Shown here: positions 3,357 through 36,201 of the stretch, piece after piece
Numbering within the stretch: the first letter of the stretch is position 1
Layout: each line of letters begins with the position of its first letter
Assembly (NCBI GenBank): GCA_030672375.1
Contig: DAOVGP010000010.1
Location: forward strand, 1-36,201
DNA: 36,201 bases
Source: Candidatus Aenigmatarchaeota archaeon
Lineage (GTDB): Archaea; Aenigmatarchaeota; Aenigmatarchaeia; CG10238-14
Direction of reading: 5' to 3'
Position numbers and translations under genes: made by a program
Notes under the pieces: generated by a model
What the model was told of the DNA's origin: nothing
Seen by the model: only the letters and a program-made list of their open reading frames with translations
Databases searched by the model: none

Positions 3357-3381
3357 GAAAAAACCCTCCTTTCCTAATAAA

Positions 3382-3954: not shown

Positions 3955-3958
3955 AGTA

Positions 3959-5888: not shown

Positions 5889-5929
5889 ACGTTATATAAA
5901 AATTATTTAATCAATAAATATTTGGTTAC

Positions 5930-7362: not shown

Positions 7363-7366
7363 TTAA

Positions 7367-7951
7367 TCACCTTAATTTTTGTGCTTTTTTCCAGGTATTC
7401 AAAGTCAATTCACCGACTTCCTTCATCGTCCTACCAAGACAAACAAACCCACCATTCTTTATAACAATAAAATTGTTATTATCCAAAACAGCCAATACCT
7501 CATTTGTCACTTCCATTGTTCCAGGTGGTTGTTTCTCTTCTGTAACAGGTGATTTCAATTTTTCAGCATTTTTTGTAATAGAATTATCATGCCCATGGAA
7601 TATCGCATTGACATCACCTCGTGTATTGTAAATTAGAAAATGCATGATAGACTCACATGATGGCTCTAGTTTACCCTCGACATAAAAAGTGTTGCTGTAA
7701 ACATCATAATTATCTACGTAAACAAAATTATCGTTGCTTAAGTTTTCTTTTGTTTTCAAAGTCGTCCCTGTTATTATAAACCCGTCTTCTGTTCTGAAAC
7801 TTAAATTACCAGTAGATGCTCCATCTCTGGGCAAAGTCAAATTATTTTTATTGAATTGATTGCACCAATGTTTTAACTCTTCAATATTTTTGTCGTTAGG
7901 AATTTCATCAGAAATAAAAATCGTCTTGAACTTTACTCTTTTTTCTTGCAT
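7367..7951 (-). CDS. Class II (metal-dependent) aldolase/adducin-N family protein (MtnB/Ald2/FucA-like)
   Basis: 194 aa. STGNLSFRTEDGFIITGT, EPSCESIMHFLIY, AIFHGHD and IKNGGFVCLGRTMKEV follow the conserved block order of class II aldolases. Confidence 0.7.
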   Translation of the reverse strand: MQEKRVKFKTIFISDEIPNDKNIEELKHWCNQFNKNNLTLPRDGASTGNLSFRTEDGFIITGTTLKTKENLSNDNFVYVDNYDVYSNTFYVEGKLEPSCESIMHFLIYNTRGDVNAIFHGHDNSITKNAEKLKSPVTEEKQPPGTMEVTNEVLAVLDNNNFIVIKNGGFVCLGRTMKEVGELTLNTWKKAQKLR

Positions 7952-7987
7952 TGAACCACTTGAATAATTTTTTAATCATACGTGGAT

Positions 7988-9013
7988 TTATCTATGTGGT
8001 TCAACTATTACTTTAATAGATTCATTAGCTTCAGCAACCAACTGGAAACCTTTACCAATTTCTTCCAAACTTAATCTGTGTGTTATCATATCCTTAACGT
8101 TTATTTTACGAGATTGAATAAATTCTATAGCTTCCTCAATATCCACAGGGGCAGCAGCGTATGTTGTTGTTAAAGTCGCTTGACTCATCCAAAACTCATT
8201 GAACGGTAAAGGAATTTCAACACCTGAATCAGTCGGAGCAAAGAATAGAATAGTACCTCCACCATCCACAGATTTTAAAGCTTGTTCTATAGCTGATACA
8301 GCCCCTGTACAAACTATAACACGATCCGCTAATCTTCCTTCATTAACTTCTCGTACACGTGCAGATACATCTTCTTTAGCATTAATAACTTCATCTGCTC
8401 CAAACTTCTTCGCCGCTTTCATCCGATATTCGTTTATATCAGTCGCAATTATTTTTTCAGCCCCAAGTACACGAGCCAATTGAATATGAAGTAATCCAGA
8501 CAATCCACTCCCTAACACGACTACAGTATTACCTTTTTTTAGATCAGCTCTTCTCCGTCCTCTTATAACACAACCCAAAGGTTCTATAAACGTTCCCTCT
8601 TCAAAAGACATTTCATCAGGCAACAAGAATGTCCCTAATTCTACATTTATCTTTGGCACTCGAATAAATTCAGAAAAACCGCCAGGATCAAAGTTAGTTG
8701 TATGTAAAGTCCTACAAATAGTATGGTGCCCATTCAAACAATATCTACATTCATTGCAAGGAACATGGTGCGATACAAAAACTCTATCTCCCACTTTGAA
8801 ATCTTTCACATTCTTTCCAATCTCAACGATCTCTCCACTCATTTCATGTCCTAGAACTCTTGGTGCTTTTTTAATTCGGTACCACTCCATTACATCGCTA
8901 CCACAAATTCCGCATGCCATAGTTTTTATTAATAATTCATCCGGACCAATCTTTGGTTTTGGCATTTCTTCTATTCTAACGTCTTTATTGTTGTAATACA
9001 TTGCTACGCGCAT
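7988..9013 (-). CDS. Zn-dependent medium-chain alcohol/polyol dehydrogenase
   Basis: 341 aa. It has the GICGSDV and GHEMSGEIVEIG zinc motifs, a structural-Zn Cys cluster (CNECRYCLNGHHTIC) and a VLGSGLSGL Rossmann loop. Confidence 0.85.
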   Translation of the reverse strand: MRVAMYYNNKDVRIEEMPKPKIGPDELLIKTMACGICGSDVMEWYRIKKAPRVLGHEMSGEIVEIGKNVKDFKVGDRVFVSHHVPCNECRYCLNGHHTICRTLHTTNFDPGGFSEFIRVPKINVELGTFLLPDEMSFEEGTFIEPLGCVIRGRRRADLKKGNTVVVLGSGLSGLLHIQLARVLGAEKIIATDINEYRMKAAKKFGADEVINAKEDVSARVREVNEGRLADRVIVCTGAVSAIEQALKSVDGGGTILFFAPTDSGVEIPLPFNEFWMSQATLTTTYAAAPVDIEEAIEFIQSRKINVKDMITHRLSLEEIGKGFQLVAEANESIKVIVEPHR

Positions 9014-9033
9014 AACATCAACAAATTTATGTG

Positions 9034-9831
9034 TTACTTTTTCTTTCCTTTCTTAAGACCTTCAAACAATTCATTGGCTTCTTTTGGTGTGGCATCTTCA
9101 TGAATTATCGATCTTAATGCTTTTATCATAGCAACTGGATGTTCGTTTTTCCAGACGTTTCTTCCTAAGTTCACACCAATAGCACCTTTTTGCATGCCAT
9201 CATACACGAATTCAAACACTTCAAGTTCTGTGTCTACTTTAGGTCCCCCTGCCATGACAACAGGAACTGGACATCCTTCTACAACTTTTTCAAAATTTTC
9301 ACACCAGTATGTTTTTACTATTCTTGCACCTAGTTCAGCAGCAATTCTACAACATAGAGCAAGATAACGAGCTGTTCTTTTTTCCATTTCTTTACCTACA
9401 GCAGTAACTGCCATCACTGGCATACCATATTCTTCAGCTTCATCAACGAGTCTCGCGAGATTTAACAGTGTTTGATGTTCATACTTACTTCCAACAAATA
9501 TAGAAAGGCCTACGGCAGATGCGTTAAGGCGTACAGCTTCTTTTATAGAAGTAGTAATTCCCTCATTCGCCAAATCTTCACCAACCACACTAGTTCCACC
9601 AGAAACTCTCAAGATGATTGGTTTAGTATTATTCGGATCTATACAATTACGCAAAACTCCCTTAGTAACAAAAATCGCATCACAATAGGGAAGTAATGGT
9701 TTTACAGTCTCGCCTGGTTTTTCCAATTTTGTGGTTGGTCCTTGAAAATATCCATGATCTATCGGCAAGAATAAACAATGACCATCTTTCTGTATCAATC
9801 TTGACAACCTATTTTTCATTCCCCAATTCAT
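9034..9831 (-). CDS. DhnA/FbaB-type class I aldolase (archaeal FBP aldolase / ADH-synthase / LsrF family)
   Basis: 265 aa. N-terminal LFLPIDHGYFQGP and a central IVKTYW segment (candidate Schiff-base Lys) resemble the DeoC/LacD-like class I aldolase family. Confidence 0.78.
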   Translation of the reverse strand: MNWGMKNRLSRLIQKDGHCLFLPIDHGYFQGPTTKLEKPGETVKPLLPYCDAIFVTKGVLRNCIDPNNTKPIILRVSGGTSVVGEDLANEGITTSIKEAVRLNASAVGLSIFVGSKYEHQTLLNLARLVDEAEEYGMPVMAVTAVGKEMEKRTARYLALCCRIAAELGARIVKTYWCENFEKVVEGCPVPVVMAGGPKVDTELEVFEFVYDGMQKGAIGVNLGRNVWKNEHPVAMIKALRSIIHEDATPKEANELFEGLKKGKKK

Positions 9832-9850
9832 GGGAACACCTCCTTAAATA

Positions 9851-10915
9851 TTAATCAAATAATCTTTTAATCTCATTGGGTTTAATAATTCCTTTCTCTG
9901 TTATTAATCCTGTCACATATTTTGCAGGAGTAACATCGAAAGCAGGATTTTTTACGTGAGATCCTTTAGGTACTATTCTGATTTTCTTCAATTCCCCTTG
10001 AGAGAATCCCCACATATGAGTTACTTCTTCCTCATCTCTTTCCTCAATCGGTATGTCTTTTCCATATTTAATGCTCATATCAATGGTGGTAGTTGGCAAA
10101 GCCACATAAAACGGAATCTTGTTTTCTTTTGCAATCACTGCTTTTTCATAAGTTCCTATCTTGTTCGCAACATCACCTTTTGCAGTTGTTCTATCTGACC
10201 CAACGATACAAATATCAATTTCTCCGTTTCTCATGTAGTGACCAGCAGCATTATCCACTATAACAGCATGATCAATTCCTTCTTGTAACATTTCCCATGC
10301 AGTTAATCTTGCACCTTGACATCTTGGTCTTGTCTCATCTACAAAAACAAATATCTTTTTCCCTCCATAATGAGCAAATCTCATTGGAGCTAAAGCTGTA
10401 CCATAATCAACAGTCGCCAAAGCCCCAGCATTGCAATGTGTTAAAACACTATCCCCATCCTTAATCAATTTGCTACCATACACACCAATATTTTTACATT
10501 TTTCAACATCTTCATCCGCAATACTGTTAGCTTCTTTAATTGCAATTTCTCTTTTTTCTTTTACTGAAATTCCTTTTTCTATCGATTTCAAAACTCTGTC
10601 TATCGCATAGAACAAGTTATATGCAGTAGGTCTGGTATTCTTTAGTGTCTCACTCGCTTTCCTAACATAATCATCAAATCCTGTGACCGGAGCCTCCATA
10701 CATGCTTGAGCCATCCCAAACCCTGCTGTTGCTCCGATAGCAGGAGCTCCCCTTACAATCATTGTTCTGATTGCTTCAGCAGTTTGTTTATGATCAAAAG
10801 AAGAATAAATCTCAAATCTATGTGGTAATTTTGGTTGGTCTATCATCTTGACTATATGACTTTCCATCCAGACGGTTCTAAACTCTTTTATCTGATTACC
10901 AATCTTAACTCTCAT
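9851..10915 (-). CDS. mtnA: Methylthioribose-1-phosphate isomerase-type (eIF-2B-related) sugar-phosphate isomerase
   Basis: The motifs RGAPAIG, THCNAGALATVDYGTALAP and GSDRTTAKGDVANKIGTY are MtnA-type. I chose the ATG at 10915; the ORF track extends to a TTG at 10936. Confidence 0.85.
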   Translation of the reverse strand: MRVKIGNQIKEFRTVWMESHIVKMIDQPKLPHRFEIYSSFDHKQTAEAIRTMIVRGAPAIGATAGFGMAQACMEAPVTGFDDYVRKASETLKNTRPTAYNLFYAIDRVLKSIEKGISVKEKREIAIKEANSIADEDVEKCKNIGVYGSKLIKDGDSVLTHCNAGALATVDYGTALAPMRFAHYGGKKIFVFVDETRPRCQGARLTAWEMLQEGIDHAVIVDNAAGHYMRNGEIDICIVGSDRTTAKGDVANKIGTYEKAVIAKENKIPFYVALPTTTIDMSIKYGKDIPIEERDEEEVTHMWGFSQGELKKIRIVPKGSHVKNPAFDVTPAKYVTGLITEKGIIKPNEIKRLFD

Positions 10916-10966
10916 AAACCGTAATATGAGTTCCAAATTTTAAAAATAATAGGAAAGGAGTTAAGA

Positions 10967-16587: not shown

Positions 16588-17721
16588 TTACTCCTCGCCC
16601 AATCTTGAGATTAACTCGAACATACCTGTACCAATAGGAACCTGTTGATTTACCATAACATTATCGAATATGGCGTCGAATTTATCCTCTTCTTGTCTGA
16701 CAGACGCCCGCACTAGATGTTTTATAGTCTCTTCAAACCCTGCTCTAGTGAGGATAGATGATTTCATACCAGCCACACCATACCTTCCGATAGCTTTAAT
16801 TTCTCCAGTAAACGTCATCATATCCGCTACCAATAAAACATGTCTAACATCTATATCCAACCCTTGTTGTTGCATAGTAATCTTAGTCTCTCTTATTATC
16901 GTATTCCTACCGGCTTCTATACCTAAGACGCTAGCCATTTCATGTATGTTGTTTGTGTAACTCCTCTTTATATCTATCTCATTAAATGTCATGATCTTAG
17001 CAAAATTAGAACCCATAGTTGTAATAACCCAATCATTTTCTTCCTTAATTATTATACTGTTCTTTATTTTGGGGATTCCGGATACACAAAAATCCAACAT
17101 TTTTTTCTTGAGTTTTTGTAGGTCCTTAATCGATAAATCTTTCACTTCTGACTCAACGTTTAAAATATCACCTTTGATAAGTATCTTGTAATTCTTGAAC
17201 TTTTTCCTAAGATTTGAAATGACTTCGTTTTTCCTTGATTTTTTTAGTTTTTTCAACTTAACTTTTATTTTCTTGTTAGTTAAATCAAGAGAGACTGATG
17301 TTATCATGTTTCTCAGTGTTTTTTCTGTGATTTTTTCAGCAATCTTTTCAGCATGTTTCTTAGTATTGTAATTCTTCTTCAAATACAAAGACATCATAGA
17401 TGCTTTTGGCTCTTTCTTTGCATCAAATATCTCGATTAATCTAGGTAATCCTAAAGTCACCCTAATTCCGACTGAACCAGCGAAATGGAAAGTACGCATG
17501 GTCATTTGTGTAGCAGGTTCGGATATAGATTGAGCCGAAATTATACCAATAGCCTCTCCAGGTTCAAAAGAACTATTCATATACTCTCTCTTAACAGCAT
17601 CGATTAGTTTCTTTTCTTTGACAGAATTAAATTTTTTCTCTCTACAAATCTTCTTTATATCATCTAATATTCTACCCGGTAATAATTCATCCGAATATTC
17701 TGTCTGCGATTTTTTCGACAT
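16588..17721 (-). CDS. rpoA2: DNA-directed RNA polymerase subunit A''
   Basis: About 377 aa from the ATG at 17721 (the track extends to a GTG at 17730). [28 protein letters not shown] is the trigger-loop region. The start overlaps the 3' end of the preceding ORF by about 35 nt. Confidence 0.9.
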
Positions 17722-20700
17722 TAATTCCACCTTTTTGTATTTTTGAGGGGTCCAATCCGTCCTCTCCTGGGACGAACTGTACTATTTTTTTAGCACTATC
17801 CCTGACAGTACCGTCGTACTCAACTTTCAAGTCCTGTAGTGCTCCGATCAATCTTCTCTCCAAATAACCACTATGTCTCGTTTTCAGAGATTTATCCATC
17901 AAACCTTCTCTACTGTTCATAGCATCAAAGAAGAACTCGAATGGATTTAAACCTTGCTTATAACCATTCTTCACGAAACCTTTTGATTCCAAACTTATAT
18001 CACCATGCTTGAAATGTGGAAAAGTTCTCCCAAAGTAACCAATCTTTATTCTTTGTCCTTTTATCGTCTCTTGACCTATACAAGCTGCAGTTTGAACAAA
18101 ATTTATCATGCTACCTCTCGCACCACTCCTTGCCATTATAACAGTATTGTTCATAGGAATCTGTTTCTCTACAACATTTGCAATTCTATTCAAACAATCA
18201 GCAAGTTTCCTTTGAATGAGTACTTCTAAACTGTCCCTGGGTGTTCTCCCAATTAAAACTTTTATTTTTCCTCTCTTAAAATCTGTGATTATTTTGTTTA
18301 CTTCTTGTCTTACATCGTTTATTATTTTATCTATCTTCTTGAGTGTATTCTCACTCAAATCATGATCAGAAAGTGAAATCGAAAAGCCTTGTTCTGTCAA
18401 GAATTTTAGAGCAAGCCTTGTGATGCTGAATAGAAACTCTTTCATAAATTTATGCCCGTATATCTTATCCATTTCATCCAGTATTTTTCCACTGAATGCA
18501 GCTACACTTTTCTTATCTATAGTTCCAGTTATGAGCTGACCTTTTTTTATGACAACATACGAATCATAAGGACACTTCTCCTTCATACATTTCGAACAGC
18601 CTATACAACATTCTGCTTTGTAACTCATGTTGAAATCTTTAGGTAGAAACAGACTGAACACTTCTTTACCAGTAAAAGTTTTCTTTTCTGGAATGTCTAT
18701 GTTTGGGTTACATGATTTTACCAATTGTACAACTTCCTTTCTTGTAAATTCTCGATGACCATGAGTCAACAAATACAAAGATGTTATATGATCTTTACTG
18801 CATCCAATTATAGGACCACTAAACCTTGGACTCCTAATATGATTGGGTACATCCATTAAAAGTTTTATCTCTGCCTGTGCTTCTTCTGCTTGTGGAACAT
18901 GCAAGTTCATTTCATCCCCATCGAAGTCAGCGTTATAGGGTGGACAAACAACAAGATTTAGCCTGAATGTTTTGTAAGGCATTACCCTAACTTTATGCCC
19001 CATCATACTCATTCTATGTAGAGAAGGTTGTCTGTTGAACAGTGCCCAATCACCATCTTCTAACTGTTTTTCAACGACGAATCCTGGTTCAATTTCTTTC
19101 GAAATTTCTTCTTTGTTTATTTCACTGATTCTTTTTTTCATACCGTCTGATCTTATTATGTAATTCACAGTTGGCCATTCTGGGTATCGGTTAATCAATG
19201 TTTTTATATATTCAATATTTTTTTCATTGACAACGATTGAAGTAGTTAACTCCTTTGCTATTTCTATAGGGACACCCACTTCATTAACATCGAGTAAAGG
19301 ATCAGGACTTATGACAGTCCTAGCTGAGTAATTGACCCTCTTTCCGATTAAATTATGCCTGAATCTTCCTTCTTTTGTCTTTAATCTCTGTGTTAAAGTT
19401 TTTAAAATTCTTCCAGATCTATGTCTGGCTGGTGGTACCCCAGAAAGTTCATTATTAATATAGGTCGCAACATGATACTGAACAAGTTCCCACAGATCTT
19501 GAATGATAAAATCAGGTGCACCTAAATCTATATTTTCTGCCAATCTCTTGTTTATTCTCACAATATCAACTAGTTTATGTGTTAAGTCATCCTCTGACCT
19601 TTCACCCGTTTCAAGTGTTATGGAAGGTCTGACTGTTACAGGTGGTATCGGTAAAAGAGTTATAATGAATAACTCTGGTCTAACTTTTCTTAAACCAAGA
19701 TAAATCAAATCTGAGTCTGGTATTTTTTCTAATTTTTCTCTAACTTGGATTGAATTTAAAATAGTACTGCCTTCAATGAAACTGGTCGGCTTCAAAAATT
19801 TTACCTTCTTTTGTGGTGTTCCACAATGAGGACATTTGCTTTTAACTAAGGCCTTTAATCTCTTGAATGATTTCTTTTTAGAAATGAATTTTTCCATACC
19901 ACCTTGATCTAAAAGAACTCTGCCACAATTTTGACAAGTTGTCTTTAATATGTTATAAATCAACTTTGCATAAAGAACATGAATAACGGGTCTTACAAGT
20001 TCTAAATATCCAAAATGTCCGGGACACTCACCAACAGTCCCAGCACACGCCCTGCATCTTAAACCAGGATCGATGACACCCAATCTAGGATCCATCAGAC
20101 CACCTTCTATTGGATAACCTTCTTGGTCGTAAAGGTCTGTCTTGTTTATTTTTGCAGCAGACATTTTTTTTATCGTCTCAGAACCCAAGACTCCAAATAC
20201 TATCTTTTCTAAAGTGTTATCCTTGCTGACTACTATTTTTGGATATATCAACATACTTTTCAATTCATCCATCAGAAGTTTGAACGCATAAGACATTTCA
20301 ACATCATCAACTTTAGATTCACCACACACAGGACAATATTTTTTATTCTTTATTCTATCATGAATTGCAATCAATCCACAATCTTTGCATATAGGTATGC
20401 TTGTCTTATCAGAACCAAATCTTTCTTTGAGGACAAGGGTGGCACCCTGTGCAATCAAACAATCTTTTTCCATCTCCCCTAACCTTAACCCACCCCTTTT
20501 AGACTTTCCTTCTGTAGGTTGCTTGGTTAAAAGTGTAACTGGACCTCTTGATCTGGCATGAATCTTATTTGAAACCAGATGATCTAATTTTTGATAAAAA
20601 ACGTTTCCCACAAATATCTGACCAGTTAATTTTTTGCCAGTTTGACCGTCATAAAATGTTTCCTTTCCATCGCCCCTAAAACCATGCTCTTCAAGAGTTC

Positions 20701-22012
20701 TCCTAAGTCCTGATTCGGAAAGGGAATGAAACGCGGGACTACTCAATCTTTCACCTTTCATAGCAGAAACCTTTCCAGCTAATATCTCCAATAATTGACC
20801 TATGGTCATCCTAGAAGGGATACCATGAGGGTTGAATATTATATCTGGAACTACCCCGTCTTCCGTGAATGGCATGTTTTCTTGAGGAACTATTAGGCCT
20901 ACAACACCTTTTTGTCCATGTCTACTAGCAAATTTATCACCAATTTCTGGTTTTTTCAAATCTCTTAGGATTACCTTTACCAGTTTACTGCCATTTTTAC
21001 TTTCTGTTATGAAGACTCTATCGACTATTCCCTCTTCACCGTGTCTTAATTTGACTGAAGTTTCTCTAATATTCTCCAAGCCTGTTATGAATTGATCGAG
21101 AGAACCGAGGAATCTCAAGGGTGATACTTTTCCGATGAGTACTTCATCAGATTTAACCTTTGTCCCAGGGTTGATGATCCCGTCTTCTGGTAGATGTTTA
21201 TAAGCATCTTCTCCAGGATATCCTCTTATACCTGGTTCTGGAACCCCGATGATATCTTCTTGACCTCCCATGTATCTCTTTTTTTCAGCTTCGTATGACC
21301 TGAACAAATAAGACCAGAATAAACCTCTTTCTATGGACGATTTATTCATTACTATTGCATCATCCATATTGTACCCCTCAAAGGACATTATCGCGATGAC
21401 TATGTTTTGACCACCAGAATGGTTCTCATCTTTTAGAACGTCGTTAATATGTGTCTTGACGAGCGATACTTGTGGGTCAATTAATATATTAGATTTTGTA
21501 TCAGTTCTCATTGGAAAATTCAAAGAGTACATACCAATAGCTTGACCTACCATCTTTGCTCCAAAGTTTACTCTATCTCCACGATCAAATTCTGGGAAAG
21601 GAACCAATGATGTAGATAGTCCAAATATTGTTACAGGATCCAATTCCAGATGTGTATGCTCTTTTGTCAAATCCCCTGGTTCTAATGCTACATAAGTATT
21701 TTCTTCTTCTTCTGCATCTAGGTATTCAATAACACCTTCTTTTATTAAACCAGACCAACTCATCTTCTTCTTTTTTATCTTTTCGATATGTTCTCTAGTG
21801 AGTTTTGGTTTACCATTCTCTACGACTATCAAAGGACGCCTCGCTCTCCCAGAATCAGTAAGTATTTTTATCGTATCCAAATGTTCCAAATGGGCAACAT
21901 TCACTTGATCAGAAATCTGTCCCTTTCTCCTTTTCTCTCTGATCAAATTTACGATTTTCTCTGGCTTTTCAGTCGTTCCAACGAATTTTCCACCTAAAAA
22001 TACATCAATCAT
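17687..22012 (-). CDS. Fused DNA-directed RNA polymerase subunits B' (residues about 1-598) and A' (residues about 600-1441) in one ORF
   Basis: The B' part has [27 protein letters not shown] and a Zn ribbon (CKDCG...CPVCG). After ...[20 protein letters not shown] the frame runs straight into the A' N-terminus: [44 protein letters not shown], then [15 protein letters not shown]. There is no stop codon or plausible internal start at the junction (about 20183-20242). Confidence 0.85.
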
Positions 22013-22013
22013 A

Positions 22014-23498
22014 CTAACTCTCCAAATTCTTTTTAATTAGGTTGTATGTCTGTTTGATTTCCTTCTCAGATCTACCTGTAGTTATCTGGGACATTACCGA
22101 TAGATATTTTCTCAAACCGATTGTCGCTCCTTCTGGTGTTTGTGATGGATCTATTCTTCCCCAATGCGTCGGGTGTAACTCTCTCGCTTCGAAATGTTCT
22201 TGTGTAGATGTTAAAGGAGATAGAATATTTCTCATATGAGATAGAGTTTTTATATAACTACTTCTCTCTAACCTTTGAGAGACACCTGTCCTTCCTCCAA
22301 CCCAAGCCCCTATTGCTAAGGCAGATAATATCTGATTTGTCAGGACATTTGCTTCAACTATAGCTTGTAAGGGAGGGAATCTACCTCTTTTGGTTAATTT
22401 TTGATAGTTATATGTGATTCTTGTTATCAGTCCCCACTTTCCTAATAGTATAGACCTGAACAGAATTTCAAGTAAATCTCCAGATAATCTTAAACGTTTA
22501 TTAGAATAATGATCCAAATCATCCTCTGGAATTTTATTCAAATGAAAGAGTAAAATTTTGTTTACAGCTTTAGAAAGGAATATGGCTTTATTAAGCCTAT
22601 CTGCCTTATCCTGGCCCAAGTGTGGTAGTAGATATCTATCTATGAGTCTTGCAACTCTCTCTCTTCTATATTCTTTTTGTGGTATCCTGATGTGCCCACC
22701 TATCTCATCTATAGCTTCCTTTGCTGTTGACGATTCACTCTCGAACAAGTTGGGATAGAACTCTTCTTGGATCTCTGGATTTAGAGATATTGCATTAATT
22801 ATATCTTTATCGGATTCTAACCCTAAAGCCCTCAACAGAATGACTATCGATAAGTTGCTGATGTTAGCGAAGTTTATCCTGACAACTCCGTCTGTTTTTC
22901 TCTGTATCACATGCCTCTGGATGTATCCGTCTTTTTGTGAGTGAATTCTTGCACTTTCTGTTACATTTGGGATATTAGATTTTTCGACTATAATTCGATT
23001 TGGAGCAATTTCCTCTATTAAAACCAAGACTCTCTCAGTTCCATTTATGATGAAGTAACTACCTGGATCATCAGGACTTTCTCCGGCTTCTATTAATTCT
23101 CTCGTAGTCATTTTGGATAGAGGACAGTATTTTGATTTTAACATAATTGGCAAATCTCCAAAATTAACCCATATTGTTTCACTTTCAATTTCGTTCAGGA
23201 TTGGCGTCATTTCAACGTACATTGGAGCTGCATAAGTTAAGTTTCTAATCCTTGCCTCTAATGGTAAAATATTCCTAACAGAACCATCTGCCTCTTTGAC
23301 AGAAGGTACACCTAATTTGAATTTTCCAAGTTTTATCTTGAATTCACCTAAATCAGGGACTTCGGGTTTTATCTCTTTTATTTGTTTTATTATATTATGA
23401 ATCCTTCTATCCACAAAAGCATTAAAAGAGTCTATCTGAAACTTTACGAAACCTTGCTCATCAGCGAACGAACCCAAAAGTACTTTAAATCCATCCAT
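22014..23498 (-). CDS. rpoB2: DNA-directed RNA polymerase subunit B'' (N-terminal half of the split B)
   Basis: About 494 aa from the ATG at 23498 (the track extends to a GTG at 23507). The N-terminus FQIDSFNAFVD... is typical of Rpb2. One nt separates its stop codon from the ATG of the B'-A' ORF. Confidence 0.9.
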   Translation of the reverse strand: MDGFKVLLGSFADEQGFVKFQIDSFNAFVDRRIHNIIKQIKEIKPEVPDLGEFKIKLGKFKLGVPSVKEADGSVRNILPLEARIRNLTYAAPMYVEMTPILNEIESETIWVNFGDLPIMLKSKYCPLSKMTTRELIEAGESPDDPGSYFIINGTERVLVLIEEIAPNRIIVEKSNIPNVTESARIHSQKDGYIQRHVIQRKTDGVVRINFANISNLSIVILLRALGLESDKDIINAISLNPEIQEEFYPNLFESESSTAKEAIDEIGGHIRIPQKEYRRERVARLIDRYLLPHLGQDKADRLNKAIFLSKAVNKILLFHLNKIPEDDLDHYSNKRLRLSGDLLEILFRSILLGKWGLITRITYNYQKLTKRGRFPPLQAIVEANVLTNQILSALAIGAWVGGRTGVSQRLERSSYIKTLSHMRNILSPLTSTQEHFEARELHPTHWGRIDPSQTPEGATIGLRKYLSVMSQITTGRSEKEIKQTYNLIKKNLES

Positions 23499-23500
23499 TT

Positions 23501-23746
23501 TTAACACTCTATTACGATTCTATAATAAACCGATTCTTTTGTTGCTTCACTCTTTCTGATTATCTTGATGAGGTCGCCAACTTTTGCAGCTAAAGCACAA
23601 GCGATAGGATCTGACTTCAATAACTTGGGAAATTGGCTCATTTTTTTTATTCCATACTTCTTAATAACATCATTTTTTTCATCTTCCGAGAGAATTATAT
23701 GTTTAGGAACTATTTTATGGTCAAATATGTTTATCTTATTCTTCAC
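23501..23746 (-). CDS. rpoH: DNA-directed RNA polymerase subunit H (Rpb5-like)
   Basis: 81 aa. DHKIVPKHIILSEDE...FPKLLKSDPIA...GDLIKIIRKS...YYRIV is the RpoH pattern. The start is GTG, preceded by a GGTGA Shine-Dalgarno sequence. Confidence 0.87.
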   Translation of the reverse strand: MKNKINIFDHKIVPKHIILSEDEKNDVIKKYGIKKMSQFPKLLKSDPIACALAAKVGDLIKIIRKSEATKESVYYRIVIEC

Positions 23747-23757
23747 ACTATCACCTA

Positions 23758-23852
23758 CGCCCTGAAGGGGATTTGAACCCCTGTCCCGGGAGTGACAGTC
23801 CCGGAATCTACAACATTTAACGTTTTGATAGACCGAGCTACACCATCAGGGC
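23758..23852 (-). tRNA. tRNA-Asp (anticodon GUC) with a roughly 20-nt non-canonical intron in the D-arm region (about 23806-23825)
   Basis: The reverse complement has acceptor stem GCCCTGA/TCAGGGC, discriminator G73, anticodon arm CGGGA-CTGTCAC-TCCCG and T-arm AGGGG-TTCAAAT-CCCCT. The gene is 95 nt against about 75 expected. The extra 20 nt lie between the D-loop and the anticodon stem, inside a helix-bulge-helix-bulge-helix fold. CCA is not encoded. Confidence 0.75.
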
Positions 23853-23874
23853 TTATGTAAAAACTATCGAATAG

Positions 23875-23882
23875 AAATTTAA
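23875..23882 (-). promoter_or_regulatory. Candidate TATA box (TTAAATTT) about 23-30 nt upstream of tRNA-Asp
   Basis: The position relative to tRNA nt 1 fits archaeal TATA spacing. The sequence context is AT-rich, so specificity is low. Confidence 0.3.
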
Positions 23883-23884
23883 CC

Positions 23885-23889
23885 AAAAA
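23885..23889 (-). terminator. Oligo-T tract (TTTTT) about 50 nt downstream of the 5S rRNA
   Basis: The minus strand reads CCCCAATTTTTGG between the 5S gene and the tRNA-Asp TATA candidate. Archaeal terminators are typically oligo-T runs. Confidence 0.25.
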
Positions 23890-23938
23890 TTGGGGATGGG
23901 AAGTAAATTTTCTGATCAATAATGGGTCACCATCAAAT

Positions 23939-24079
23939 GGGTTGACAACGTCCTGGGTTTCCCGCCCGAGGGCAGTACAGTCCAGATCACTGGAGAGTTT
24001 AACTTTCACGCAGTCTTTATAGACTGTTCCGTGTTCGGGATGGGAACGGGTATTTCCCCTCCGTTTTGGTCGTCAACCC
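23939..24079 (-). rRNA. rrf: 5S rRNA gene, 141 nt, interrupted by a 23-nt insertion
   Basis: The reverse complement starts GGGTTGACGACC and ends GTTGTCAACCC (helix I). It contains the universal 5S string ACCCGTTCCCATCCCGAACACGGA...AGTTAAACTCTCC. Ends are uncertain by about 2 nt. Confidence 0.88.
24005..24027 (-). other. Putative BHB-bounded mini-intron (or hairpin insertion) within the 5S rRNA gene
   Basis: The minus strand reads CACG-GAA-CAGTCT-ATAA-AGACTG-CGTG-AAA. This is a 4-bp helix (CACG/CGTG) flanked by two 3-nt bulges on opposite strands, plus a 6-bp inner hairpin. Removing ACAGTCTATAAAGACTGCGTGAA restores the consensus CACGGAAGTTAAAC. Confidence 0.55.
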
Positions 24080-24100
24080 ATAAATTATTATATTCAGCTT

Positions 24101-24108
24101 TATTTAAA
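24101..24108 (-). promoter_or_regulatory. Candidate TATA box (TTTAAATA) at about -22 to -29 relative to the 5S rRNA 5' end
   Basis: The sequence and spacing are TATA-like, and the element lies in the 89-nt spacer between tRNA-Tyr and 5S. Confidence 0.35.
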
Positions 24109-24168
24109 CTTGATGATATTCACAATCTTTATTCACAAAAACTTAAATAATTATCGGAAATGTTAGAA

Positions 24169-24283
24169 TCCCCGGAGCCGGATTTGAACCAGCAACCTAT
24201 CGGTATCTTTCGAGCGATTGCTAACGATCAAGTACCATAGTACTCGACTACAGCCGATCGCTCTACCATTGAGCTATCCGGGG
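24169..24283 (-). tRNA. tRNA-Tyr (anticodon GUA) with a 43-nt canonical (37/38) intron at 24205-24247
   Basis: The reverse complement folds as CCCCGGA-TA-GCTC-AATGGTA-GAGC-G-ATCGG-CTGTAG[43 nt]A-CCGAT-AGGTT-GCTGG-TTCAAAT-CCGGC-TCCGGGG-A. The C1:G72 pair is the archaeal tRNA-Tyr hallmark. A BHB fold is present with bulges AGT and ATA around the helix CTGT/AAAG (one G.A mismatch) and an inner helix CGAG/CTCG. Confidence 0.85.
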
Positions 24284-31448: not shown

Positions 31449-31826
31449 ATGTTTTGGAATGTCACAATATTAGTAGGTGATTTTATCAAAGAGGTTAATC
31501 TTGTTAATTTTGATAGTTTCGATGAAATACTTATAAAAAAAGTGAGAGATGTAGCACAACCATTACTAGACAAGTATAACAGAATGTATAGTGAAGATAA
31601 GATACAAGAATTCAAACTGGTAGTAGACACAGTCAGAAAAAAACAAGAAAAATATCTGTATGAAGTTATTGGAACTTTGAAAACCAACAAAAATTTTTTC
31701 AGGACTGAAGAGGTTGGGTGGAAGATCTTAGATACAGTCGAAAAAGTAATAGATGAACTTGGGGGAATGGTTACAAAAAAGAAGGGAAGAAAGAAATCTA
31801 AAAAGAATCTACCAGCAAATGCATAA
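31449..31826 (+). CDS. Hypothetical basic-tailed protein; possible HPF/RaiA-like (S30AE) fold
   Basis: 125 aa. The predicted order of segments is beta-alpha-beta-beta-beta-alpha, and the terminal helix plus Lys-rich tail (VEKVIDELGGMVTKKKGRKKSKK) recalls ribosome hibernation factors. This rests on pattern similarity only. Confidence 0.45.
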   Translation: MFWNVTILVGDFIKEVNLVNFDSFDEILIKKVRDVAQPLLDKYNRMYSEDKIQEFKLVVDTVRKKQEKYLYEVIGTLKTNKNFFRTEEVGWKILDTVEKVIDELGGMVTKKKGRKKSKKNLPANA

Positions 31827-31877: not shown

Positions 31878-31950
31878 AGCCCTGTGGTGTAGTGGTCAAG
31901 CATGTCGGGCTTTGGACCCGCAGACGCAGGTTCGAATCCTGCCGGGGCTA
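31878..31950 (+). tRNA. tRNA-Gln (anticodon UUG), intron-less
   Basis: Folds as AGCCCTG-TG-GTGT-AGTGGTCAA-GCAT-G-TCGGG-CTTTGGA-CCCGC-AGAC-GCAGG-TTCGAAT-CCTGC-CGGGGCT-A. The A1:U72 pair is typical of archaeal tRNA-Gln. There is one mismatch at 27:43, and CCA is not encoded. Confidence 0.85.
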
Positions 31951-31963
31951 TTCTGTGATTTAA

Positions 31964-32599
31964 TTGACAACCGAAAAGGAAGTTTGGAATATCATTGCGG
32001 ATTCTTGGACGAACTTGAGAGTTAAACCAGAGAGTGAAGTAATCGATTTCTCAAAGACAATAAATAGTGGACCGATTCTAGATGATGGTTGTGGTAACTG
32101 TAGAAACTTGTTACCATTTCTTGAAAGAGAGTTTTACTGTGTAGGTATGGATTTTTCAAGTGGCATGATAAGAGAAGCAAAGAAATTTTTGAGAAAAAGA
32201 AAATTGAAAGCAAACTTAGTCATCGGTAATTTAGTTCATCTACCATTCAAAAAAGGAACTTTTTTGTCGATTCTTTGTATCAGAACTTTACATCATGTTG
32301 GCCCCAGAATACTCAGATTAGAAGCATTAGAAGAAATGAAAAGGGTTGGTATCAAAATTCTGATGAGTGAATGGAAAAGATGGCAATGGAGATTTATTTG
32401 GAAACTCATTAAAAGCTTCATTTCTGGACATTTTGGTGATGTTTACGTCGATTGGAATTATCATGGAAAAAAATACAAGCGATTTCACCACTTATACACA
32501 AAAAAAGAACTAGAAGAAGATTTGAAAACAGTGGGATTAAAGATTGAGAGAATTTGGTTTGACAATAAGGGTAATATTTGGTCATTGGTGAGAGAATGA
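31964..32599 (+). CDS. Class I SAM-dependent methyltransferase, Trm9/ALKBH8-MTase-like
   Basis: 211 aa with a TTG start, the only start upstream of the conserved N-terminus. The blocks VWNIIADSWTNLRVKP, LDDGCGNCRNLL, LHHV and DVYVDW...RFHHLYTKKELEEDL parallel the Trm9 blocks (IAPHFSxTRYKPW, GCGNGKYL, VHH, DVxVPW...YYHLF..gEL). Confidence 0.7.
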   Translation: MTTEKEVWNIIADSWTNLRVKPESEVIDFSKTINSGPILDDGCGNCRNLLPFLEREFYCVGMDFSSGMIREAKKFLRKRKLKANLVIGNLVHLPFKKGTFLSILCIRTLHHVGPRILRLEALEEMKRVGIKILMSEWKRWQWRFIWKLIKSFISGHFGDVYVDWNYHGKKYKRFHHLYTKKELEEDLKTVGLKIERIWFDNKGNIWSLVRE

Positions 32600-33507
32600 A
32601 ATGCTCATTCTGTAATAAGAAATCAATATACTTCCGAAAATATGAGGGCCATCATTATTGCGAAAAACACTTTACAAAAAGTATAGAAAAAAGAGTCAAA
32701 AAAACAATAAGAAAAAACAAGTTGATAGAAAATGGAGATAAAATAGCTATTGCTCATTCTGGTGGTAAAGATTCATCCAATGTATTATTTTTATTGAATA
32801 AAATTTTCAAGAATAATCCGAATATCAATCTTTTTGTTATAACTATTAACGAAGGGATAAAAAAATACAGAGATGAATGTCTCAAAAAAAGTGAGAATTT
32901 CTGTAAAAAACTTGGTATAGAAAGGCATGTGTTTTCATTCAAAAAAGAAGTTGGTATTACTGTTGATGATTTAACTAAGAAAATGAAGACAGGGTATTGT
33001 GGTAGTTGTGGGTTGTTGAGAAGGTATTTACTCAATAAGAAGGCGAGGGAATTAGGAGCTACTAAAGTGGCAACAGGACATAACCTTGATGATGAATGCC
33101 AGAGTATACTAATGAACATCTTGAAAGGAGATTTGTTGAGACTTGTCCGCATGGGACCTGTACCAAGGGTAGTAAAGCATAAAAAATTTGTACAAAGGAT
33201 AAAACCTTTAATTTTCATACCAGAAAATGAATCTGAGTTGTTTGCTAAAATAAACAAAATACCATTTGGATCAAAAAGATGTCCTAATTCAATTGATAAT
33301 CCTTTACGTGGGAAAACAAGAAAGTTCTTAGATGATTTAGAGAAAAGTTCTCCTGGTATAAAATATAGCCTTTATGAAAGTGCCTTGAAAATTGTACCTT
33401 CTGTCAAAGGTAAATTCAAACAAGGAAAAATCAATTATTGTAAAAATTGTGGAGAACCAAGTAGTCGTGAGATTTGTAAGGTTTGTGAATTATTAAAAAA
33501 TTTATGA
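32596..33507 (+). CDS. PP-loop ATPase tRNA 2-thiolation enzyme, Ncs6/Ctu1/NcsA/TtuA family
   Basis: About 303 aa from the ATG at 32596, which overlaps the upstream stop codon (ATGA). It has an N-terminal Zn finger (CSFCNKK...HHYCEKH), the PP-loop AHSGGKDS, GHNLDDE and a C-terminal Zn finger (CKNCGEP...CKVCE). Confidence 0.85.
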   Translation: MKCSFCNKKSIYFRKYEGHHYCEKHFTKSIEKRVKKTIRKNKLIENGDKIAIAHSGGKDSSNVLFLLNKIFKNNPNINLFVITINEGIKKYRDECLKKSENFCKKLGIERHVFSFKKEVGITVDDLTKKMKTGYCGSCGLLRRYLLNKKARELGATKVATGHNLDDECQSILMNILKGDLLRLVRMGPVPRVVKHKKFVQRIKPLIFIPENESELFAKINKIPFGSKRCPNSIDNPLRGKTRKFLDDLEKSSPGIKYSLYESALKIVPSVKGKFKQGKINYCKNCGEPSSREICKVCELLKNL

Positions 33508-33669
33508 TTCATGCCCGTTCTGTATTTCTTCAATCTTGCACCGCAAGAATTGGATTCTATTCTGCAAGAACTTCAATTGTTTAACACTCTTGGACTTAAA
33601 CAATCGGGTTTTTGTTTCGAATAATTCGTCTTGGTAAAACCTTAACCTGTGGATGTCTTGTGAATTCAT
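33502..33669 (-). CDS. Candidate 55-aa helical/coiled-coil ORF, divergent from elp3
   Basis: It was found by reading the minus strand and is below the ORF-track size cutoff: MNSQDIHRLRFYQDELFETKTRLFKSKSVKQLKFLQNRIQFLRCKIEEIQNGHES. A TTATATA element ends 26 nt upstream of its ATG, which fits a leaderless transcript. The region is more GC-rich than typical spacer. Coding status is unproven. Confidence 0.25.
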   Translation of the reverse strand: MNSQDIHRLRFYQDELFETKTRLFKSKSVKQLKFLQNRIQFLRCKIEEIQNGHES

Positions 33670-33774
33670 ACTATCATTTATTTACTTTTTAGTGGTATAT
33701 AAGTGTTACTACTATTTGATAGAAAATTAATATATAAACATTTCTATTCTACACTCAATAATTAATGTGAGATT

Positions 33775-35340
33775 ATGGAAAAAGGGGATGTTTGCATCGA
33801 TATAATAAAGGAATTAATTAAAAGTGAGAATTTAGATCACAAAAAAATCGATAAAATCATCAAAAATCAATGTAAAAAACATGATCTAAAAAAAATGCCA
33901 ACAAAGGTCGAAATTCTGAATTTTTGTAACCCAGAAGAGAGAAAGAAACTGATAAGGTTCCTGATAACAAAACCATCTAGAACTATGTCTGGAGTGTCTG
34001 TGGTAACAGTGGTGGCAAAACCATCTTCATGCCCAGGTACCTGCATCTATTGTCCTAAGGGAATCAATGCGCCTCAATCTTACACGGGCATGGAGCCAGC
34101 AATACAGAGAGGTATAAGGAATAATTATGACCCATTTCTTCAAACAAGAGACCGATTGAATCAATATAAAATTACAGGTCATCCTTCAGACAAAGTAGAA
34201 ATTATTATTCTCGGGGGAACATTTCTTGCTCTGGATAAGGATTATCAGGAATGGTTTGTAAAAAGGATATTCGACGTACTCAATAAAAAGGAGAGTGAGA
34301 GTTTAGAAAAAGCAGAGAATTTGAATGAAACTGTAAAACATCGATGCGTGGGATTATGTTTAGAGACAAGAGCCGATTTCTGTTTTGAGGAACACATAAA
34401 CCAAATGTTAAAACTAGGTACTACGCGAGTTGAAATTGGTGTCCAATCAATCTATCCAGATATCTTGAAAAAAGTGAGACGTGGTCATACTGTTGAAGAT
34501 TCCATACGTGCAACACAATTAGTTAAAGATTCTTGTTTAAAATGTACACACCATATCATGCCTGGATTGTTTGTTGATTTTAACAAAGATTTAGAGCAAT
34601 TCAAGATTTTATTTGAGGACACTCGATTCAAGCCAGATTCACTTAAGATTTATCCTACTCTCGTTATCAGGGGGACAGAACTGTATGATTTGTGGAAAAA
34701 AGGTGAGTATAAACCACTGACAACTGAAGAGGGAGTAAAACTCATTTCAGAGGCGATGAAATACATACCAAAATATTGTAGAGTAATCCGTATTCAAAGA
34801 GACATTCCAAGCGATAAGATTGTTACGGGTATTAAAAGTAGCAACTTAAGAGAACTCGTGGAAAGAGAATGTGAGAAAAGGGGTATAAAGATACAAGAAA
34901 TAAGATACAGGGAAGTTGGTCATAAATTTGAGAAAGGAATTATATCAAACTTGGATTCTATAAAATTACTTAGATTTGATTATGATGCCTCTCAAGGGGG
35001 GGAAATTTTCTTAAGCTTTGAAGACGTTAAAAACGATGTATTAATTGGATTCTTGAGACTCAGAATTCCTCATAAACCCTTCAGACCAGAAATTGATGAA
35101 AAAACAGGATTGATAAGAGAATTGCATGTTTATGGTCCTACAGTGCCTATCGGTCAGAAAATAAGAAAGGCGTGGCAACATAAAGGTTTTGGTAGAAAGT
35201 TGTTGAAGGGAGCTGAAAGAATAGCGAAAAATGAATTTGATATGAAAAAAATTATAATCATCAGTGGAGTTGGGGCCAAGGAATATTACAAGAAGTTTGG
35301 ATATAAAAAAGAAGGACCATATGTTTCAACAATTCTCTAG
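33775..35340 (+). CDS. elp3: Elp3: radical-SAM plus GNAT tRNA uridine(34) carboxymethyl-transfer enzyme
   Basis: 521 aa. It has the radical-SAM cluster region KPSSCPGTCIYCP, QSYTGMEPA and YDPFLQ, followed by a C-terminal acetyl-CoA-binding GNAT region (WQHKGFGRKLL). Confidence 0.92.
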   Translation: MEKGDVCIDIIKELIKSENLDHKKIDKIIKNQCKKHDLKKMPTKVEILNFCNPEERKKLIRFLITKPSRTMSGVSVVTVVAKPSSCPGTCIYCPKGINAPQSYTGMEPAIQRGIRNNYDPFLQTRDRLNQYKITGHPSDKVEIIILGGTFLALDKDYQEWFVKRIFDVLNKKESESLEKAENLNETVKHRCVGLCLETRADFCFEEHINQMLKLGTTRVEIGVQSIYPDILKKVRRGHTVEDSIRATQLVKDSCLKCTHHIMPGLFVDFNKDLEQFKILFEDTRFKPDSLKIYPTLVIRGTELYDLWKKGEYKPLTTEEGVKLISEAMKYIPKYCRVIRIQRDIPSDKIVTGIKSSNLRELVERECEKRGIKIQEIRYREVGHKFEKGIISNLDSIKLLRFDYDASQGGEIFLSFEDVKNDVLIGFLRLRIPHKPFRPEIDEKTGLIRELHVYGPTVPIGQKIRKAWQHKGFGRKLLKGAERIAKNEFDMKKIIIISGVGAKEYYKKFGYKKEGPYVSTIL

Positions 35341-35383
35341 GAATGAAGCCTTGATTTATATAAAATGAGTTGAATTTAATATT

Positions 35384-36201
35384 ATGCCCAAAAATTACAA
35401 AAAGGTTTTGAAAAAAGTATTGAAACAAATTAAACCTAGTCCTAAGGAAAAAAAGAAATTGGAGAAGTTGAGCAAAAAAACTTTAAAAATTGCAAGTAAA
35501 GTAGCGAAGGAATATAACGCCAAAGCTATAATTGCGGGTTCTCTGACAAGAAACACTTGGTTACCAAATAAGAATGAATTCGATATTTTCATCATATTCC
35601 CAAAAGCCATATCTGAAAAAAAATTGGAACAATTAGGCCTTAAACTGGGAAAGAGTATAATCAAAAAATTGAATGGTAAGTCGAGAATTGAGTATGCACA
35701 ACATCCTTATGTCAGGGGGAAAGTAAATGATATTCAAATAGACATTGTTCCTTGTTATAAAGTCGAAAGTGGAGAAAAAATCAAATCTGCTGTTGATAGA
35801 ACTCCTTTTCATGTCGAATACTTGAACAAGAATTTACCTAAAAAATTGTCGAACGATGTTAGGTTATTGAAGCAATTATGTAACGGGAATAAAATCTACG
35901 GAGCAGACACAAAGACAGAGGGGTTTTCGGGTTATGTATGTGAACTTTTGGTAATAAAATACAGAAGTTTTATCAATGTCTTAAAAAATGTTGTAAAATG
36001 GAAACCAGGTGAGATTGTTGATATTGAAAAATACTTCGATAAAAGGGATTATCAAAAATTAAGAAAAAAATTCAAAAGACAAGTTTTGATTTTAATAGAT
36101 CCTCCGGATAAGAATAGCAATGCGGCTGCTGCTATATCAGCAACTAGTTTTTACACATTGAAAAAAATAGCGAATGTTTTTTTAGCCGATCCTTCTGATG
36201 A
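35384..36201 (+). CDS. cca: CCA-adding enzyme (archaeal class I tRNA nucleotidyltransferase), truncated by the window end
   Basis: The frame is open from the ATG at 35384 to the end of the window, and it is missing from the ORF track because it has no stop. AGSLTRNTWLPNKNEFDIFIIFP, DIVPCY, DRTPFHVEYL and GFSGYVCELLV are hallmark archaeal Cca motifs. Confidence 0.88.
   Translation, partial: MPKNYKKVLKKVLKQIKPSPKEKKKLEKLSKKTLKIASKVAKEYNAKAIIAGSLTRNTWLPNKNEFDIFIIFPKAISEKKLEQLGLKLGKSIIKKLNGKSRIEYAQHPYVRGKVNDIQIDIVPCYKVESGEKIKSAVDRTPFHVEYLNKNLPKKLSNDVRLLKQLCNGNKIYGADTKTEGFSGYVCELLVIKYRSFINVLKNVVKWKPGEIVDIEKYFDKRDYQKLRKKFKRQVLILIDPPDKNSNAAAAISATSFYTLKKIANVFLADPSD

Follow-up and report, generated by a model that had tools for sequence, protein, structure and literature searches.

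A candidate wobble-uridine (xm5s2U34) modification gene cluster beside a tRNA-Gln gene in an Aenigmarchaeota archaeon

Gene content and conservation of the cluster

One end of a contig from an uncultivated Aenigmarchaeota (DPANN) archaeon probably carries an archaeal version of the eukaryote-type pathway that makes 5-substituted 2-thiouridines at the tRNA wobble position (xm5s2U34), located beside a tRNA-Gln gene and the gene of a tRNA 3′-end maturation enzyme. It is a conserved new instance of a gene association for which archaeal precedents exist, and not a system of a new kind. The stretch analyzed was the whole contig (DAOVGP010000010.1; 36,201 nt), hereafter the window; its G+C content runs at ~31–38%, the homologues of its genes came almost exclusively from metagenome-assembled genomes (MAGs) labeled "Candidatus Aenigmarchaeota," and a Logan contig (L083) contained a region identical to it. 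An earlier note, made by reading the DNA alone, had described five features at 31878–36201, namely tRNA-Gln, a Trm9-like methyltransferase, a PP-loop thiolase, Elp3, and the CCA-adding enzyme, and all five were recovered on the plus strand at these coordinates. The note's phrase of five features on one strand holds for the strand but not as an uninterrupted run, because the 267 nt that separate the thiolase and Elp3 genes contain a minus-strand gene, orf55 (33502–33669).

A profile built from 43 methyltransferase homologues (profile A1) was scanned against one genome per GTDB species and identified 79 loci. The order threonyl-tRNA synthetase (ThrRS, minus strand), orf125, tRNA-Gln, methyltransferase, NcsA where it is part of the cluster, Elp3, and CCA enzyme was retained in ~26 of the 30 Aenigmarchaeota species-representative loci, indicating that the arrangement goes beyond chance; the neighborhood, which the earlier note proposed to look for in related genomes, is conserved. 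NcsA was absent from the cluster in ~8 relatives (L011–L014, L016, L020, L021, and L028), and several loci held at least one extra gene between the methyltransferase and NcsA genes. Adjacency of the methyltransferase and Elp3 genes also occurred in a Thermoprotei MAG (L054).

Elp3 and the CCA-adding enzyme both exceeded the curated cut-offs of their families, so that the identities given to them in the earlier note stand. Elp3 (521 aa; 33775–35340, plus strand) scored 716.7 bits with TIGR01211 (cut-off, 350) and comprised the Pfam domains ELP3_N, Radical_SAM, Radical_SAM_C, and Acetyltransf_1 (GNAT), with the radical S-adenosylmethionine (SAM) motif CPGTCIYC at residues 86–93 (C86/C90/C93) and the GNAT acetyl-CoA motif QHKGFG at residue 468. 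The archaeal class I CCA-adding enzyme (35384–36201, plus strand), of which the N-terminal 272 aa are present before the contig end cuts the gene and which measures 475 aa at full length in relatives, scored 323.5 bits with TIGR03671 (cut-off, 281.3) and matched the Pfam domains NTP_transf_2 and tRNA_NucTransf2.

From the characterized homologues we infer the following enzymatic steps. Elp3 would use radical SAM chemistry and acetyl-CoA to place a carboxymethyl group onto C5 of U34, giving 5-carboxymethyluridine (cm5U), whose carboxyl group would then be esterified by the SAM-dependent Trm9-like methyltransferase to 5-methoxycarbonylmethyluridine (mcm5U). NcsA would adenylate C2 of U34 through its PP-loop and then introduce sulfur from a [4Fe-4S] cluster held by three cysteines, giving 2-thiouridine (s2U). 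On tRNA-Gln(UUG), tRNA-Lys(UUU), and tRNA-Glu(UUC), the predicted outcome is mcm5s2U or a closely related nucleoside, and the CCA enzyme would complete tRNAs without an encoded CCA, such as the tRNA-Gln of the window.

Assignment of the methyltransferase and the thiolase

The methyltransferase gene (31964–32599, plus strand) encodes a 211-aa class I SAM-dependent enzyme that we regard as a candidate tRNA (cm5U34) carboxyl-methyltransferase on the basis of profile, fold, and residue comparisons. Its start codon is TTG in the window, and ATG occupies the equivalent position in relatives. Pfam assigned it to the generic families Methyltransf_25/11, its homologues were mostly labeled "UbiE" (JGI names two of them TRM9), and a single-sequence search of the PDB returned generic methyltransferases and myoglobin noise, so that a family profile was required. 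When profile A1 was searched against PDB sequences, the Yarrowia lipolytica Trm9 (5CM2_Z) was the sole end-to-end match (profile positions 16–210, E 5e-17), and all remaining matches, including the slightly higher-scoring PH0226, covered the Rossmann half only. Profile-profile alignment by hhalign of A1 with a profile of 23 fungal Trm9 sequences (A2) gave a probability of 99.9% and an E value of 3.7e-34 over 200 aligned columns, which spanned the elements specific to Trm9, R-x-K-P near the N terminus and W, R-x-Y-H-L-Y, and N toward the C terminus. A reverse search with the Yarrowia Trm9 gave fungal proteins only among the matches listed. Furthermore, the AlphaFold2 (AF2) model of the protein (mean predicted local distance difference test score [pLDDT], 94.6) adopted a Rossmann methyltransferase fold, and its best Foldseek match in the PDB was again 5CM2_Z (E 1.7e-14; target template-modeling score, 0.81).

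Mutation of any of eight residues of yeast Trm9 (ScTrm9), R29, D72, H116, W145, W168, R241, Y243, and N271, abolishes or strongly reduces its activity (Letoquart et al. 2015, PMC4678810). Seven of the eight are identical in the window enzyme (R19, D63, H111, W137, W164, R173, and N204), and the overall identity to the Yarrowia and yeast proteins is ~24%; the SAM-binding acidic residue D63 (ScTrm9 D72) is invariant across the methyltransferase family, and H110 corresponds to ScTrm9 H115. The full-length match to the fungal Trm9 profile, the top structural match to 5CM2_Z, and these residues agree with the earlier note in calling the methyltransferase Trm9-like.

Homologues 33–40% identical to the methyltransferase were also found in Thermoplasmatota (loci L027–L078), none of them near Elp3 (0/48). 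They retain the equivalents of R29, D72, H115, W145, W168, R241, and Y243 and, in 44 of 49 sequences, carry Asn where Trm9 has the essential His116. These homologues may form a functionally distinct subfamily.

The thiolase gene (32596–33507, plus strand) encodes a 303-aa protein that PDB and NCBIfam scores, a tree, and motifs place among the NcsA/Ncs6/Ctu1-type [4Fe-4S] PP-loop tRNA 2-thiolases. Its ATG at 32596 overlaps the methyltransferase stop codon by 4 nt (ATGA), confirming the overlap reported in the earlier note, and its boundaries were identical in an independent gene call of L083. Against PDB sequences it scored 209 bits with Methanococcus maripaludis NcsA (MmNcsA, 6SCY), 152 bits with Pyrococcus horikoshii TtuA, and 119 bits with Thermus thermophilus TtuA; the NCBIfam score was likewise higher for NcsA (224.8 bits) than for TtuA (192.7 bits), both being under narrow equivalog cut-offs. 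In a neighbor-joining tree of 19 Aenigmarchaeota proteins and three references, the split of Aenigmarchaeota plus MmNcsA from the two TtuAs was recovered in 100/100 bootstraps. The protein carries the PP-loop motif SGGKDS at residues 55–60 (Pfam ATP_bind_3, 55.4 bits), and its C135, C138, and C229 align with the [4Fe-4S] ligands C142, C145, and C233 of MmNcsA (PMC10067955). Zinc-finger residues are present at the N terminus (C3, C6, C22, and H25) and the C terminus (C282, C285, C294, and C297), together with weak Pfam matches to TtuA_LIM_N and zn-ribbon_14.

That this enzyme is a TtuA-type thiolase acting at position 54 (s2U54 or s2T54) rather than at U34 seems highly improbable to us. TtuA and NcsA are close families, the Pyrococcus TtuA model matched at 192.7 bits, and the protein combines a TtuA_LIM_N zinc finger with a score below the NcsA equivalog cut-off; its NcsA scores, however, exceed its TtuA scores in both NCBIfam and the PDB, it groups with MmNcsA against both TtuAs in every bootstrap, and its gene overlaps the Trm9-like gene translationally and adjoins Elp3. 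The s2T54 modification, moreover, is a thermophile trait and requires 5-methyluridine at position 54 (m5U54). The available comparisons thus support placing the thiolase on the NcsA (U34) side, as the earlier note had done, and we class it as NcsA-type by sequence but not as an equivalog of NCBIfam NF047749.

Partner proteins were looked for by motif scans only, using the C- and N-terminal motifs of Trm112, its published [C/D]PX[C/D]X19-36CX2C signature, and a C-terminal GG. No Trm112 or SAMP/Urm1-like gene was found by these scans, which covered the window and 441 kb from 34 related loci, in line with the earlier note, which had seen neither partner in the window. The sole motif matches to Trm112 were zinc-ribbon proteins ending in CGFEGP, which were rejected as Trm112 and which we take, from their family sequence pattern, to be COG2888-like. 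Nor does the methyltransferase carry a fused Trm112 zinc-knuckle.

Several observations weigh against the pathway assignment as a whole. For the methyltransferase, searches of Pfam-A and NCBIfam yielded generic methyltransferase domains and UbiE/TehB matches below threshold, but no model specific to Trm9. The Foldseek margin of 5CM2_Z over other class I methyltransferases was small (1.7e-14 versus 4.8e-13), and the essential ScTrm9 Y243 is replaced by H175 in the window enzyme, where 27 of 30 Aenigmarchaeota homologues have Tyr. The Trm9 comparisons were confined to fungal Trm9 and the PDB. Characterized Trm9 enzymes need Trm112, and motif scans of the window and of the sequence up to 10 kb from the cluster in the 34 related loci showed no gene for it. 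As for the other members, the thiolase fell below the NF047749 equivalog cut-off (224.8 versus 500 bits, the model being apparently narrow), its tree held just three reference sequences, and orf55 splits the cluster between NcsA and Elp3.

Part of this evidence bears on a second explanation, in which the methyltransferase has the Trm9 fold but is a paralogue that modifies something else, be it another carboxylated nucleoside, a different RNA or a protein, or a small molecule; the cluster would then yield cm5(s2)U or its carbamoylmethyl counterpart ncm5(s2)U with no methyl ester. Besides the generic Pfam/NCBIfam families, the predominant "UbiE" label at JGI, the His in place of Tyr243, and the lack of a Trm112 gene nearby in the motif scans, this explanation can draw on the Thermoplasmatota homologues, with their Asn at the His116 position in 44 of 49 and no link to Elp3, and on H. 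volcanii HVO_0574, which was formerly called Trm9 but is inactive on tRNA (PMC6144793). We nevertheless consider it unlikely, given that the similarity to Trm9 extends over the whole length and takes in the C-terminal W...R-x-Y-H-L-Y...N elements absent from generic methyltransferases, that seven of the eight essential substrate-site residues are retained, and that members of two archaeal phyla have the methyltransferase gene linked to Elp3. The assignment of the methyltransferase as Trm9-like over its full length, beyond a mere Methyltransf_11 enzyme, is therefore supported by sequence and predicted fold, with a real residual doubt as to its relation to H. volcanii HVO_1032 (the validated archaeal Trm9) and HVO_0574. 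The earlier note had named three computational outcomes that would speak against its reading of the cluster, a methyltransferase grouping with unrelated Methyltransf_11 enzymes, a PP-loop enzyme in the TtuA clade, and a gene order kept in no relative, and none of them was observed.

The tRNA-Gln junction, orf55, and transcription units

The tRNA-Gln gene (31878–31950, plus strand) has the anticodon UUG and was identified by ARAGORN and by Rfam RF00005 (64.4 bits, E 6e-12), in agreement with its sequence and fold. It has no intron and does not encode CCA, TTC following the discriminator A. Direct reading of the sequence places a spacer of 13 nt, TTCTGTGATTTAA, between the tRNA and the methyltransferase start codon (31951–31963, plus strand), with a Shine-Dalgarno-like GTGAT. 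The corresponding spacer measures ~12–50 nt in ~20 of 30 relatives, several of which also have GTGAT. Because the 13 nt leave no room for an archaeal promoter, the tRNA-Gln and methyltransferase genes are predicted to be cotranscribed; with the ATGA overlap added, tRNA-Gln, trm9, and ncsA would probably be carried on one precursor.

The anticodons of the syntenic tRNA-Gln genes were read by eye and with a regular expression, as ARAGORN, with intron mode on or off, missed or miscalled the intron-containing tRNAs. The tRNA-Gln upstream of the methyltransferase has the anticodon UUG in the window and in L001, L003–L008, L010, L022–L026, and L031, but CUG, with C34 and hence not a substrate, in at least six relatives (L002, L011–L014, and L016). 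This variation indicates that the adjacency of tRNA-Gln reflects conserved synteny and not a strict pairing of enzyme and substrate. The earlier note's term "substrate tRNA" is accordingly too strong.

Even close relatives differ in this anticodon, with UUG in L001 and CUG in L002. The syntenic tRNA-Gln genes of relatives contain 1 to ~4 introns at noncanonical positions (after position 7, in the D-arm, after position 37/38, and in the T-arm), the window copy having none; intron-bearing loci are L001, L003, L004, L006–L008, L010–L012, L016, L022–L026, and L031.

The gene between NcsA and Elp3, orf55 (33502–33669, minus strand), is convergent with NcsA and divergent from Elp3 and encodes a conserved 55-aa helical or coiled-coil protein. 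An orf55 profile matched all 30 Aenigmarchaeota loci that carry Elp3. Twenty-nine of these matches were strong and lay on the strand opposite to Elp3, ~80–170 nt upstream of its start, a position kept also in loci without NcsA in the cluster; the thirtieth, in L030, was weak (E 2e-4) and lay on the same strand, just upstream of Elp3. Pairwise differences at codon positions 1, 2, and 3 were 0.283, 0.186, and 0.519, and the orf55 frame was open in 21/21 sequences with all other frames closed, which together indicate that orf55 is a real gene. It had no relative in Pfam, NCBIfam, or the PDB, and among 1.84 billion proteins it was represented by 13 clusters, all of 52–72 aa. As the distant representatives (E ~1e-4 to 1e-3) occurred in other contexts without Elp3 nearby, the link of orf55 with Elp3 cannot be generalized beyond Aenigmarchaeota. 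The divergent intergenic region (33670–33774) contains the AT-rich TATA-like boxes GGTATATAAG and TTAATATATAAAC, which are probable promoters for orf55 and Elp3, and nucleotide conservation continues through this region in relatives, as detected by blastn.

With orf55 on the opposite strand, the cluster probably comprises at least two transcription units, and a transcript shared by NcsA and Elp3 is unlikely. A single operon would occupy one strand with no opposite-strand gene intervening, which the position of orf55 (33502–33669) contradicts. We therefore regard the operon-level coupling suggested by the earlier note as too strong a term, since this opposite-strand gene separates NcsA from Elp3 and NcsA is missing from the cluster in ~8 relatives. 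The transcript structure is, like the enzymatic steps and the final nucleoside, a prediction. The first unit would be a tRNA-Gln/trm9/ncsA cotranscript from which the tRNA is excised 13 nt ahead of the methyltransferase start codon, and the second would consist of elp3, plus cca, expressed from the divergent promoter region at 33670–33774 shared with orf55.

The same observations bear on a possible explanation to which we give appreciable, though minority, credence: the enzymes act as their families do, but the way they are arranged is a gene order passed down in a neighborhood with many translation genes, with neither a pathway operon nor a specific coupling to tRNA-Gln. Such an origin would account for the conserved opposite-strand orf55 between NcsA and Elp3, for the ~8 relatives in which the cluster lacks NcsA and others in which unrelated (LOG-like) genes separate it from the methyltransferase, and for the syntenic tRNA-Gln CUG genes of L002, L011–L014, and L016, which have no U34. 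The neighbors, too, are ThrRS, an HPF-like protein, Memo, a GluRS-type synthetase, and ribosomal proteins, and the conserved examples of the full cluster are confined to one phylum. What an inherited order does not readily explain is that the adjacency of methyltransferase and Elp3 recurs in Thermoprotei and Sulfolobus, that the methyltransferase and NcsA genes overlap translationally by 4 nt, and that the spacer between tRNA and methyltransferase stays at 12–50 nt in ~20 loci.

A more far-reaching joint proposal, which we put forward tentatively and hold to be rather doubtful, has two parts: tRNA-Gln and the Trm9-like/NcsA genes would form a single tRNA-mRNA precursor, with the Trm9-like enzyme working independently of Trm112, and orf55 would be an accessory factor or regulator of an otherwise stand-alone Elp3.

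Other genes of the window and comparison with known systems

Upstream of tRNA-Gln lies orf125 (31449–31826, plus strand), which is conserved in Aenigmarchaeota (tblastn and family alignment) and encodes a protein with a fold like that of the ribosome hibernation factors HPF/RaiA. It had no Pfam match. Its AF2 model was of low confidence (pLDDT, 59.9) but showed a beta-alpha-beta-beta-beta-alpha topology, and the top 34 Foldseek matches in the PDB were all HPF/RaiA/pY; a profile search against PDB sequences matched the HPF 8UU4 with an E value of 0.032. The protein is stand-alone, and its C-terminal tail is basic and ends in PANA. It was considered as a SAMP-like protein and rejected, its "LGG" not being conserved and its fold being HPF/RaiA-like, and it is outside the modification pathway. 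Archaeal HPF-domain factors (HibA/AHA, CBS-domain fusions) were first described in 2025–2026, and orf125, judged from its modeled fold, would be a CBS-less variant of these.

In the closest relatives (methyltransferase 87% identical), the Trm9-like gene and NcsA are separated by an inserted LOG-like gene (PF18306/Lysine_decarbox), and the CCA enzyme is followed by Memo, a GluRS-type class Ic synthetase, and then L7Ae, S28e, S13, S4, S11, and RpoD; the window stops before these. Coordinates for the LOG-like insertion and the post-CCA genes are L080 10615–11142, L080 15375–17901, and L081 10000–10509.

Elsewhere in the window, a 1441-aa open reading frame (17687–22012, minus strand) joins, as assembled, RNA polymerase B′ (Rpb2 domains 4–7) in frame to A′ (Rpb1 domains 1–5), with neither a stop codon nor a start Met at the junction; B″ (22014–23507) and A″ (16588–17730) are separate genes. 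The region 23758–24283 (minus strand) contains a 5S rRNA at 23940–24077 (Rfam, 46 bits) and a 115-nt, probably intron-containing tRNA at 24169–24283 (Rfam, 58.9 bits), and a 95-nt "tRNA-???" called there by ARAGORN at 23758–23852 was unsupported by Rfam at the gathering threshold. A group of genes at 2103–10936, mostly on the minus strand, resembles SAM recycling and methionine salvage and comprises an S-adenosylhomocysteine (SAH) hydrolase (2103–3356), a P-loop kinase resembling adenylylsulfate (APS) kinase (3382–3954), an inositol-monophosphatase/CysQ-like protein, an APH-like kinase, a purine/methylthioadenosine (MTA) phosphorylase, a class II aldolase, and an IF-2B/MtnA-like isomerase. The kinase scored 101 bits with APS_kinase and 45.9 bits, above the Pfam threshold, with KTI12, the latter resemblance probably reflecting merely the common P-loop kinase fold.

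Comparison with characterized systems sets limits to what is new here. The earlier note had considered the methyl-ester step poorly defined in archaea, which is out of date, since H. volcanii Trm9 (HVO_1032) with Trm112 was demonstrated in 2018 to form mcm5U in vivo as well as in vitro (van Tran et al. 2018, PMC6144793). Like HVO_1032, the window methyltransferase would be a Trm9-family enzyme of an archaeon acting downstream of Elp3; unlike HVO_1032, which needs Trm112 for solubility and activity, it has no Trm112 gene near its cluster in Aenigmarchaeota by motif scan. With the yeast and Yarrowia Trm9-Trm112 and the methyltransferase domain of human ALKBH8 (5CM2; PMC4678810) it shares the fold, the full-length profile, and seven of eight essential residues, whereas it differs from yeast and Yarrowia Trm9 in having His for Tyr243, in lacking the eukaryotic insertion, and in being clustered with Elp3 and NcsA downstream of a tRNA gene. 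The M. maripaludis NcsA (6SCY) is a single-protein U34 thiolase that may use sulfide directly (Bimai et al. 2023, PMC10067955); the window thiolase resembles it in the PP-loop, the three [4Fe-4S] cysteines, and the two zinc fingers, with MmNcsA as its best PDB match (209 bits), but comes from another lineage and remains below the NCBIfam equivalog cut-off. Elp3 of the window has the radical SAM plus GNAT architecture of archaeal Elp3 and exceeds the curated cut-off (TIGR01211), and is set apart from other archaeal Elp3 by its pairing with orf55, divergent in 29 of 30 loci and on the same strand in L030. The stand-alone Elp3 of Methanocaldococcus infernus was reportedly found by Selvadurai et al. 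in 2014 to form cm5U in vitro. A full-text literature search found no paper on tRNA modification by a DPANN Elp3.

If the assignments hold, Aenigmarchaeota would retain, despite their reduced genomes, a complete eukaryote-type mcm5s2U34 machinery, and the range of archaeal Trm9 would extend beyond Haloferax; the compact cluster also offers clean candidates for asking whether Trm9 can work without Trm112. The value of the finding is nonetheless confirmatory, as guilt by association among Elp3, Trm9, and NcsA dates back to 2008 and the demonstration of the archaeal methyl-ester step to 2018, and its remaining potential novelty lies in the tRNA-mRNA junction, a possibly Trm112-independent Trm9, and the small gene linked to Elp3. 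Grosjean et al. 2008 (BMC Genomics, Fig. 4B, PMC2584109) show archaeal Tuc1, Elp3, and Trm9 family genes in clusters, including Elp3-Trm9 in Sulfolobus solfataricus, and use this clustering to predict an mcm5s2U-like modification of U34. The earlier note knew of no described arrangement with all three enzymes beside a cognate tRNA gene, but clustering of these gene families in archaea was thus on record by 2008. The examples of 2008 appear to be pairwise, with Elp3-Trm9 in Sulfolobus and Tuc1 with IscS/IscU, unlike the window, which, in a DPANN lineage, brings all three genes together within 3.4 kb along with tRNA-Gln and the CCA enzyme; the full arrangement with tRNA-Gln and CCA appears to be described here for the first time.

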